From the NCBI GenBank assembly GCA_029258795.1, contig JAPDKB010000002.1, positions 128,001 through 192,000 of the forward strand: DNA of 64,000 nucleotides, read 5' to 3'. The notes under the pieces were generated by a model, which saw nothing but the letters and a program-made list of their open reading frames with translations, ran no database searches and had not been told where the DNA came from. Each line of letters begins with the position of its first letter. Within the stretch, counting starts at the first letter, position 1. The position numbers were made by a program, and so were the translations under genes. Source of the stretch: an archaeon. GTDB taxonomy: Archaea > EX4484-52 > WAPT01. This document shows, one piece after another, positions 12,632 to 63,598 of the stretch.

Positions 12632-13423
12632 GAGTGCGTCCGGATAACTAAGAATTTCTCCACCACAATATAAAAATCAAAATAAGAAGGCATCACCTCC
12701 CGAGGAAGTAATACGGGGGAGGAATGTGATGCCAGATGGAAATCTACTCCCTGATAAAAAACATTCTCTCAAACATATTTAAACGTAACAGAATCCCGCT
12801 TGAAATAAAACTCCTTGCCGTAACTTTATTCTTGCATGGTATGGGTGTGAGAAGGATAAGGAAAGTGGTTCAATCCTCCAAATCTTCAGTACACGAATGG
12901 ACCTTAAAGTTCAGGCAGGTTCTGAACTTTAAGGTGGAAAAGAAGAGAAGGAGATGCATAGCAATAGATGAAACCAAGCTGAGAGTGAATCAAGCATGGT
13001 ATTACATCCATGCTGCCATGGACGCGGAAACAAAAGAATTGATAGTGATGAAAGCATACACATCAAGAAATTACTTGAACACACTCGATTTCATAAAACG
13101 GGTTACGAGATTTTGCACAAACAGGGATTTTGAGATAATAACGGATAAGATGCCGTGTTATGAACAGGTATGCAGAAGGCTTGGAGTAAGGTGGAGACAT
13201 GAGACTTTTGGAAGGAGGAATTGTATTGAGCATGTGTTCAGATCATTCAAGTTTTTCACGATGAGGTTTAATCACTGTCTGTGCGTTGATTTACGTAAGG
13301 TGAGTTTGAGACTGGACAGGGATTACTGGTTTAAGAGGGTGCTGTATTTGCTTGAATTGTGGTGTGGAATGTTTATGTTTTATTGGAATGTTTTTAGGAG
13401 GTGAGGCTTATCCGGACGCACTC
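12632..13423 (+). mobile_element. IS6-family insertion sequence, 792 bp, with perfect 16-bp terminal inverted repeats
   Basis: GAGTGCGTCCGGATAA at 12632-12647 and its reverse complement at 13408-13423 enclose one transposase ORF; no target-site duplication visible. Confidence 0.9.
12736..13404 (+). CDS. IS6-family DDE transposase
   Basis: N-terminal HTH ('SVHEW'), 'IAIDETK', 'AAMD', 'IITDK', 'RNCIEH' DDE motifs; 222 aa. Confidence 0.9.
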   Translation: MEIYSLIKNILSNIFKRNRIPLEIKLLAVTLFLHGMGVRRIRKVVQSSKSSVHEWTLKFRQVLNFKVEKKRRRCIAIDETKLRVNQAWYYIHAAMDAETKELIVMKAYTSRNYLNTLDFIKRVTRFCTNRDFEIITDKMPCYEQVCRRLGVRWRHETFGRRNCIEHVFRSFKFFTMRFNHCLCVDLRKVSLRLDRDYWFKRVLYLLELWCGMFMFYWNVFRR

Positions 13424-62554: not shown

Positions 62555-62681
62555 GCGGGGGTCGCCTAGCCTGGTTTGGCGTGGGACTGCAGATCCCATT
62601 TACCCGGGTTCGAATGCTGCGGAAGCAAAACTTCCTTGCATTTCCAGCTGTCCGCAGCTGAAAATCCCGGCCCCCGCTCCA
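62555..62681 (+). tRNA. tRNA-Cys(GCA) with a 50-nt intron at 59/60 (62615-62664); CCA encoded
   Basis: Acceptor GCGGGGG/CCCCCGC, U73 discriminator, anticodon arm TGGGA-CTGCAGA-TCCCA, T arm CCGGG-TTCGAA[intron]T-CCCGG with a full BHB. Confidence 0.92.
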
Positions 62682-62734: not shown

Positions 62735-62827
62735 TTACTTCCTCTTCTTGTGTCTCATTTTCTTCCTTCTTTTCTTCAGTTTGTGTTTCCTTATTTTTGC
62801 ACGCTTCCTTTTCTTTCCCGATGGCAT
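62735..62827 (-). CDS. 30-aa basic protein resembling ribosomal protein bS22/mS38 (AURKAIP1/COX24 family); not in ORF track
   Basis: Hand translation MPSGKKRKRAKIRKHKLKKRRKKMRHKKRK*, GGGTG RBS, 18 nt after the upstream stop. Confidence 0.75.
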   Translation of the reverse strand: MPSGKKRKRAKIRKHKLKKRRKKMRHKKRK

Positions 62828-62845
62828 TCCATGCACCCTGAAATC

Positions 62846-63598
62846 TCACTCAAGCTTTTTTAACAGCTTCCTTAAATTGAAATATTTTTTGTTTAACTTC
62901 TCGCTCTCTTTCTTGACCTCTATGAGCTTATCCTCGATTTCCCGCGCAACCTTCCCAACCTCATGTATTTCTTTCTTCTTTAGCGCTTTTGAGAGTTTTA
63001 GAATCACCTTGATTTCTTCTTCCAGTTTTTTCTTTTCTTTCTCGAACTCCTCTATCTCCTTTTCCATCCCTTCCAGAACTTCAGCTTTTTTCTTTATTAT
63101 TTCGGAAACACTCTTTTCTTCTTTTTCCACTTCCTCCTCTTCCTTCACAACATTCTTCAGCTCTTTTTCAAGTTCAGCTTTCCTTTTCCTCAACTCTTCC
63201 AGCTCCCTCTCAACCTCTCTAACCTTCTCCAAGTCCTTATCCAGAACCTTCTCAAACTTCTCCATGACCTTTTTGAATTCCTTGATCCGTCTTTCCTTCG
63301 CTTTCAGCTCTTCCTTCAGAGTTCTTGCTTGTTTATTCACCCTCTCCCCAAGCTCCTTTACCTTCTTTTCACCCAGCTCTTCGGCTTCCTCAGAAAGGTA
63401 AAGATGGCACCTTCCCCTCGCATCATAATCGAGAACCATGAACCCCTCCCTGGCAAAAACCTTAGCCCACACTTCCACCGTCTTTTCAGGCACATTGAGA
63501 ATGGAAGCAGCAGATTCTATCGTTATGCCGGGATCATTTTTTACAAGCTCGATAAGCTTGTCAGCTTCCGTTTCAAGAAGCATGTTTTTAAATTCCAT
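62846..63598 (-). CDS. Hypothetical protein: N-terminal HTH-like domain plus long coiled coil
   Basis: 'LETEADKLIELVK...ITIESAA..LNVPEKTVEVWAK' then K/E-rich heptads; GAGGTG RBS. Confidence 0.7.
   Translation of the reverse strand: MEFKNMLLETEADKLIELVKNDPGITIESAASILNVPEKTVEVWAKVFAREGFMVLDYDARGRCHLYLSEEAEELGEKKVKELGERVNKQARTLKEELKAKERRIKEFKKVMEKFEKVLDKDLEKVREVERELEELRKRKAELEKELKNVVKEEEEVEKEEKSVSEIIKKKAEVLEGMEKEIEEFEKEKKKLEEEIKVILKLSKALKKKEIHEVGKVAREIEDKLIEVKKESEKLNKKYFNLRKLLKKLE

Follow-up and report, generated by a model that had tools for sequence, protein, structure and literature searches.

A candidate bS22-type ribosomal peptide in an archaeon and its distribution relative to eS32

Which kind of protein is specified by an open reading frame of only 30 codons in an archaeal genome, if its product is reminiscent of a ribosomal peptide familiar from bacteria and mitochondria? 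The pocket of the small ribosomal subunit to which this question leads is filled in most archaea and eukaryotes by eS32, for which eL41 is the older name. In published work, bS22, mS38 and eL41/eS32 are placed in one and the same pocket, in agreement with the first-pass annotation of the locus, which had drawn on such a shared site. The same papers know bS22 exclusively from bacteria, namely Actinobacteria, Bacteroidetes and Borrelia, and treat mS38 and eL41/eS32 as its analogues or homologues; a universal uS22 is proposed in one of them, while the resemblance is called convergent in another. The window, that is, the whole stretch of 64,000 nucleotides of archaeal DNA that was analysed, contains the open reading frame at positions 62735 to 62827.

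The host is archaeal, as had been assumed from the letters of the sequence. The source assembly comprises 1.17 Mb in 23 contigs with a completeness of 96.3% and a G+C content of 44%, and the contig that bears the open reading frame is 236 kb long. The assembly carries a full-length 16S rRNA that reaches 1407.7 bits with the archaeal model, and its LSU (23S) rRNA is archaeal as well. The window itself encodes a series of archaeal translation components and related proteins, namely aIF2-gamma, EF-1alpha, Dph2, deoxyhypusine synthase, an archaeal-type AlaRS and an archaeal CCA-adding enzyme, besides Trm14, TrmY, Rad50 and Mre11. An IS6-family transposase is encoded at 12736-13401 on the plus strand with a score of 100 bits, under the model cut-off of 125. 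In the genome collection used, the source phylum is represented by 42 species-level genomes of 0.5-2.2 Mb, which belong to one order and eight families (f1-f8).

The open reading frame lies on the minus strand (62827..62735), which the first-pass annotation had left unstated, and consists of 30 codons from the ATG at 62827-62825 up to the TAA stop codon at 62737-62735; the product, MPSGKKRKRAKIRKHKLKKRRKKMRHKKRK, is exactly the peptide written down in that annotation. Lysine and arginine account for 20 of the 30 residues and histidine for two, which places the peptide within the range of size and charge typical of bS22 (approximately 28-33 residues, very basic); the 'b' of the name, which stands for a bacterial host, does not apply, as the host is an archaeon. 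With an alternative in-frame GTG at 62836, the peptide would be three residues longer. The ATG is taken as the start because the relatives all open at the [M/I/V]-P-[C/S]-G position. A Shine-Dalgarno-like GGGTG (62834..62838, minus strand; GGTG at 62837-62834) is located 6 nt upstream of the ATG, and GGTG is complementary to CACCUCC at the 3' end of the 16S rRNA of the source genome (...GGAUCACCUCCU), so that the ribosome binding site proposed earlier is borne out. Directly 3' of the TAA, two T5 runs can be read from the sequence (62725-62711, minus strand), a possible oligo-T terminator. The gene had been suspected to escape annotation and, in fact, the exact sequences of 30 and 33 amino acids are absent from a collection of 15 billion proteins, while two out of ten archaeal bS22-type peptides are present therein, one unnamed and one as a 'hypothetical protein'. 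Gene callers thus overlook the archaeal bS22-type gene, to the extent that the window peptide is missing among 15 billion predicted proteins.

To which family does the peptide belong? A phmmer search against all PDB chains returned four sequences, all of which are bS22 or mS38: 7jil_5 (E 5.9e-4), 9i5v_10 (1.4e-3), 8fmw_V (7.1e-3) and the mS38 chain 8a22_BC (0.34). The bS22 pattern given in the first-pass annotation is recovered by this search, with alignments that are ungapped over residues 1-30 for 7jil_5 and 9i5v_10 and over residues 1-28 for 8fmw_V. A profile built from 13 archaeal copies of the source phylum (A1) sharpens the same matches to E 4.3e-7 for 7jil_5, 4.1e-7 for 9i5v_10 and 5.3e-6 for 8fmw_V, with 8a22_BC at 0.12; no eL41/eS32 chain was returned from the PDB by phmmer or by the A1 profile. 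Among the full-length ungapped profile matches, 9i5v_10 is labelled 'AURKAIP1/COX24 domain-containing protein' and 8fmw_V '30S ribosomal protein bS22'; the latter chain, from what is presumably the Borrelia ribosome, opens with MPCG as do archaeal relatives of the window peptide. The closest resemblance is found with 7jil_5, a bS22 of the Bacteroidota type that published work assigns to Flavobacterium johnsoniae: 20 of 30 residues are identical, and both peptides consist of 30 residues with a basic helix and have MPSGKKRKR, HK.KKR and RHKK in common. The window peptide differs from 7jil_5 by its archaeal host, by Leu17 instead of Arg and Met24 instead of Asn, and by a ribosomal role that is here deduced from homology.

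The similarity to bS22 also exceeds what the content of lysine and arginine alone would produce. A bacterial-only profile was assembled from eight bacterial peptides found at profile-scan loci of genome contigs, with at least ten such control loci, among the matches listed all bacterial (Omnitrophota, Planctomycetales, Neomarinimicrobiota and Saprospiraceae). On this profile the window peptide scores 32.0 bits, as opposed to a mean of -6.6 (standard deviation 3.1) and a maximum of 16.5 for 5000 shuffles that preserve composition. Equally, permutation of the column order in the comparison of archaeal with bacterial profiles gives z = 13.7, with none of 2000 permutations reaching the score. The two histidines highlighted in the first-pass annotation follow this pattern, since His15 is invariant in 21/21 archaeal and 8/8 bacterial copies and His26 is present in 14/21 and 8/8, respectively. 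Judged by sequence, the peptide groups with bS22 rather than with eS32, and the bS22 family thereby gains a new, archaeal representative.

The outcome that, according to the first-pass annotation, would have refuted its reading did not occur: a match beyond the lysine and arginine bias was found, as was conservation in relatives. The Pfam family COX24_C (PF08213), however, is matched over the full length with only 15.2 bits, under the cut-off of 23. The same family is matched by five of the 13 phylum copies at E <= 10. Bacterial peptides of this kind fare no better, as six of them range from no hit to 16.7 bits; the score below the cut-off thus reflects a limit of the model, whose coverage does not extend to such sequences. 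A six-frame search of the source genome with PF08213 and PF05162 returned nothing at E <= 10, and since PF08213 thereby misses the window open reading frame, this search is too insensitive for the window peptide; among the NCBIfam models, none matches the bS22-type or eS32 peptides tested. Mitochondrial mS38 (AURKAIP1/Cox24, PF08213) accordingly remains a weak whole-length match, at the 15.2 bits and the E-values of 0.12-0.34 for 8a22_BC given above, and is a longer protein. Actinobacterial bS22 (33 residues; Mycobacterium smegmatis, C. acnes), in published descriptions a protein of the same name in the same pocket, is represented by no chain at E <= 10 in the PDB searches with the window peptide or A1, so that the window peptide is of a Bacteroidota/spirochaete-like sequence type. 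AlphaFold2, provided with an alignment of 21 archaeal bS22-type sequences (A3), predicts a single helix of residues 4-29 with a pLDDT of 91.7, although one helix alone says little.

Could the peptide nevertheless be a strongly diverged orthologue of archaeal eS32/eL41, with both belonging to one universal 'uS22' lineage? Archaeal eS32 is, like the window peptide, small, very basic and helical, the deduced pocket is identical, the two are distributed in a complementary manner, and the uS22 proposal of the one paper mentioned above would accommodate such a relationship. Archaeal eS32 differs, on the other hand, in its length of 35-38 residues, its RWKW core and its Pfam family, and bears no likeness to the window peptide beyond composition. 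This was assessed with nine archaeal eS32 sequences recovered with PF05162 from other archaeal genomes (A2), in which RWKW is invariant. The window peptide has no Trp and lacks the RWKW core, and PF05162 (L41) does not match it at E <= 10; among the peptides compared, those of the bS22 type match PF08213 only and those of eS32 PF05162 only. Alignment of A3 with A2 by hhalign yields a probability of 1.3%, and column-order permutation of archaeal bS22-type against archaeal eS32 gives z = -0.12 (1003/2000), far from the value obtained against bacterial bS22. The statement of the first-pass annotation that the Trp-containing eL41 pattern is not followed is hence upheld, and divergence from eS32 must be regarded as quite improbable. 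With respect to eS32 itself, the genes of one archaeal family (L038 1605, L046 1462) show an apparent ATA start 6 nt after GAGGGTGA, with no ATG, GTG or TTG nearby; ATA starts may be one reason for the under-annotation of eS32.

An open reading frame of only 93 nt that adjoins an E/K-rich gene, in a genome with 84 segments rich in lysine and arginine, might also have arisen by chance in purine-rich DNA. Among these 84 segments, no other one both starts with Met and matches bS22 or eS32, and in a search of 32,188 six-frame stop-to-stop segments with the bacterial-only profile the window open reading frame is the sole significant match of the genome (E 3.2e-7; the next at 0.28); the failure of all 5000 shuffles to reach its score points in the same direction. 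Furthermore, the reading frame is under purifying selection. In 276 pairs formed from 24 sequences, the mean pS amounts to 0.85 and the mean pN to 0.17, with pN below pS in 273 pairs, and three close pairs show 4-6 synonymous and no non-synonymous differences.

Signals for expression accompany the gene throughout, as a Shine-Dalgarno motif or a TATA-like box precedes every copy examined. Within the phylum, all 18 other loci examined have GGTGA or GGAGG closely upstream, by a few bases, of the start codon, which is ATG, GTG or ATT. Copies in other phyla lack a Shine-Dalgarno sequence and possess TTTATA-like boxes approximately 25-30 nt before the ATG, the archaeal leaderless layout, and have genes for TFB (two loci), diphthamide synthase, FtsZ and PheRS as neighbours. 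As for the choice of start codon, an ATT start behind a strong GGAGG/GGGTGA box is seen in four f6/f4 genomes (L002 1445, L003 1429, L005 1501, L009 1590), and in five other genomes the bS22-type gene starts with GTG.

The archaeal copies also form a recognizable subgroup. Position 17 is Leu in 17/21 archaeal copies versus Arg in 8/8 bacterial ones, with Arg17 also present in the three solved chains, and position 24 is Met in 14/21 archaeal copies versus Asn in 5/8 bacterial ones; the window peptide has both Leu17 and Met24. In scores calculated with the peptide itself left out, it reaches 41.9 bits on the in-phylum profile and 41.5 bits on the out-of-phylum archaeal profile (archaeal range 41.5-42.5), compared to the 32.0 bits on the bacterial profile. 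This archaeal residue signature, together with the profile scores, the promoter layout and the neighbouring genes, argues against contamination of the assembly as well as against a very recent bacterial origin. Contamination with bacterial DNA is further contradicted by the 236-kb contig, by archaeal flanking genes and by matches in a total of 147 genomes over three phyla. A chance reading frame or bacterial contamination of the assemblies is therefore a most improbable explanation of the locus.

Upstream of the peptide gene and on the same strand lies a gene for a protein of 250 amino acids (62846-63598, minus strand) with an N-terminal HTH-like region and a long coiled coil. As its stop codon falls only 18 nt before the ATG of the peptide, the two genes are probably co-transcribed. 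Family matches of the 250-aa protein are all below threshold, the best being to the Sul12a chromatin-organizing protein with 21 bits versus a cut-off of 150. In three f6 genomes, an orthologue adjoins the peptide gene on its upstream side (full-length identity of 28-30%, E 1e-23 to 8e-34), while the genes upstream of the peptide gene in f3 and f4 are not homologous to the 250-aa gene; two congeners of the source genome retain the orthologue (63-67% identity) without the peptide gene. The pairing in the three f6 genomes favours inheritance within the phylum over separate acquisition. The idea of a recent transfer into the source genome had arisen from Ser3 of the window copy and from its identity of 75-79% to four out-of-phylum copies compared with 63-75% in-phylum. 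As a leading reading, it was set aside in view of the adjacency to the 250-aa gene in f6 and the equal scores on the in-phylum and out-of-phylum profiles.

On the opposite strand, a tRNA-Cys gene faces the peptide open reading frame. This tRNA-Cys(GCA), located at 62555-62681 (+), contains, within its T-arm region, an insert of approximately 50 nt (62616-62665) that is bordered by the inverted repeat GCTGCGGA/TCCGCAGC, and was missed by both ARAGORN and Rfam. The tRNA-Cys of the congener G002 (L091 565-641) is without the insert, which is probably a non-canonical tRNA intron.

How widespread is the gene, and how does it relate to eS32? In the source phylum, a search with the single peptide gave matches in 24 of 41 genomes, the source genome included, as open frames 24-58 codons long, and the A1 profile detected the bS22-type peptide in 25 of 42 genomes. 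By family, the peptide occurs in f6 (14/16), f5 (4/4), f3 (4/10), f4 (1/1) and f7 (1/1), compared with 0/2 in f1 besides the source genome, 0/5 in f2 and 0/2 in f8; the f7 match (G008, L036, G008:C4:2933-2998) is weak with 18 bits and an in-frame TAA after 22 codons, and may be a decaying copy. With these matches and those in two further phyla, the search for conservation in relatives had a positive outcome. In 17 of the 42 genomes the peptide was not found, and in two genomes of the same genus, with a completeness of 90% and 94%, not even a threshold of E <= 10 brought up a copy. In one of these congeners, the 250-aa gene at the syntenic locus is followed by an unrelated open reading frame and subsequently by an intron-less tRNA-Cys. 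In close kin the gene is thus dispensable or was recently lost, which weakens any claim of essentiality.

The bS22-type peptide and eS32 were never encountered together in any genome searched. Among 201 archaeal genomes, composed of the 42 of the phylum and 159 others, the bS22-type peptide occurs in 34 (25 + 9), eS32 in 75 (0 + 75), both in none and neither of the two in 92. The failure to find eS32 in any of the 42 genomes of the phylum, versus its detection in 75 of the 159 others, fits the suggestion made at the outset that this lineage may use a bacterial-type peptide. In a second phylum, that of G121 with 61 genomes, 46 genomes have the bS22-type peptide, among the high-quality genomes 12 of 13, and one has eS32; this sole match occurs in G243 with 6% contamination, on a contig of 1.6 kb and in a genome without a bS22-type match. 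In a sample of 251 genomes of a third phylum, that of G133, the bS22-type peptide was detected in 76 and eS32 in two, both of the latter matches being weak (16-17 bits) and interrupted by stop codons. The occurrence in this third phylum is sharply divided by family, with 11/11 in f65, 20/20 in f96, 9/9 in f97 and 23/28 in f104 versus 0/50 in f98, 0/24 in f99 and 0/15 in f71. Eight rows of A3 were drawn from the second and third phyla, and the respective genomes match by construction.

The eS32 profile A2 functions on other small-genome archaea, where families with genomes of 0.6-1.0 Mb score 4/5, 2/2 and 3/3, although, resting on nine sequences, it may miss divergent forms. In the second phylum, 15 of 61 genomes lack a bS22-type match, one of them being the genome with the eS32 match, and 175 of the 251 third-phylum genomes have neither peptide, if the two weak stop-interrupted eS32 matches are set apart. 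As many genomes contain neither peptide, replacement of eS32 by the bS22 type is not a strict rule. Whole families devoid of both, such as f98 (0/50), f99 (0/24) and f2 (0/5), were observed, and it is possible that in many archaea the pocket is empty or filled by a third small occupant.

Considering these findings together, we regard it as likely that the open reading frame represents a genuine gene which is translated into a bS22-type peptide of the small ribosomal subunit, apparently in the place of eS32; translation in vivo, ribosome binding, the binding site and the replacement of eS32 are all aspects that we infer. Homology to the bacterial bS22 chains of known structure suggests for the peptide a short N-terminal hook followed by a basic helix. 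The peptide would sit in the 16S rRNA pocket built by h27, h44 and h45, adjacent to both the decoding centre and the aminoglycoside site, and would extend with its C-terminal end to 23S H68/H70 of the large subunit to create an extra intersubunit bridge. The pocket of h27/h44/h45, with h2 also named for Borrelia, and the C-terminal bridge to 23S H68/H70 are those described for bS22 in the structural literature, where archaeal eS32 is described in the same pocket in contact with P-site modified bases and aIF2-gamma. In the study of the Borrelia ribosome, mass spectrometry detected all ribosomal proteins with the exception of bS22. The source genome does encode aIF2-gamma. In the source phylum and parts of two others, the bS22-type peptide would then take the pocket of eS32.

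A conserved and translated basic peptide could alternatively fulfil a non-ribosomal role, for example in nucleic-acid binding, as an antimicrobial or competitive agent or as a regulator, with a likeness to bS22 in sequence only. Such a role would be in line with the patchy distribution including the absence from congeners, with the HTH/coiled-coil protein of unknown role as the genomic partner in the source genome and in f6, and with the missing operon linkage, as linkage to ribosomal genes is not conserved and an S8 gene is a neighbour at L069 only. In one paper, furthermore, eL41 is reported to be active beyond the ribosome and bS22 to be antimicrobial. The patchiness, however, is no argument against a ribosomal function, since a deletion of bS22 is reported to be viable in M. 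smegmatis. The ungapped identity of two thirds of the residues to 7jil_5, a peptide from a ribosome structure, the retention of length and invariant positions across the set and the consistent avoidance of genomes with eS32 also speak for a ribosomal peptide. A non-ribosomal role is consequently considered unlikely, though of the alternatives discussed it is the least improbable.

Extending the ribosomal reading from the one locus to the archaea, it seems slightly favoured that at least three archaeal phyla with small genomes harbour, as a native and widespread component, a family of ribosomal proteins of the bacterial type, which would there occupy the decoding-centre pocket instead of eS32. 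Two routes to this situation are possible. A gene for a ribosomal protein might have been transferred between the domains in ancient times and have subsequently displaced eS32, or bS22 might be the older, once universal occupant of the pocket that was later replaced in most archaea. Among the main texts retrieved by a full-text literature search, there is no report of an archaeal bS22-type peptide.

The gene occurs far more widely than could be expected from one window, in a pattern complementary to that of eS32. One published paper describes L41e as sparsely distributed in DPANN and other groups and as of 'uncertain distribution' in archaea; the presence of the bS22-type gene could explain part of this uncertainty. 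Furthermore, the gene bears on whether bS22, mS38 and eS32 are the result of convergence or represent one universal protein and, if true, would provide a direct test of the 'uS22' proposal. It would equally distinguish these little-studied archaea at their decoding centre and aminoglycoside site. Ribosomal proteins are textbook examples of domain-bound genes, and one survey reports 122 of 122 archaeal genomes to be without 21 listed bacteria-specific ribosomal proteins. If the reading presented here is true, a ribosomal protein would be added to the archaeal list, and the rule that archaea lack the bacteria-specific proteins would be broken by either of the two routes.
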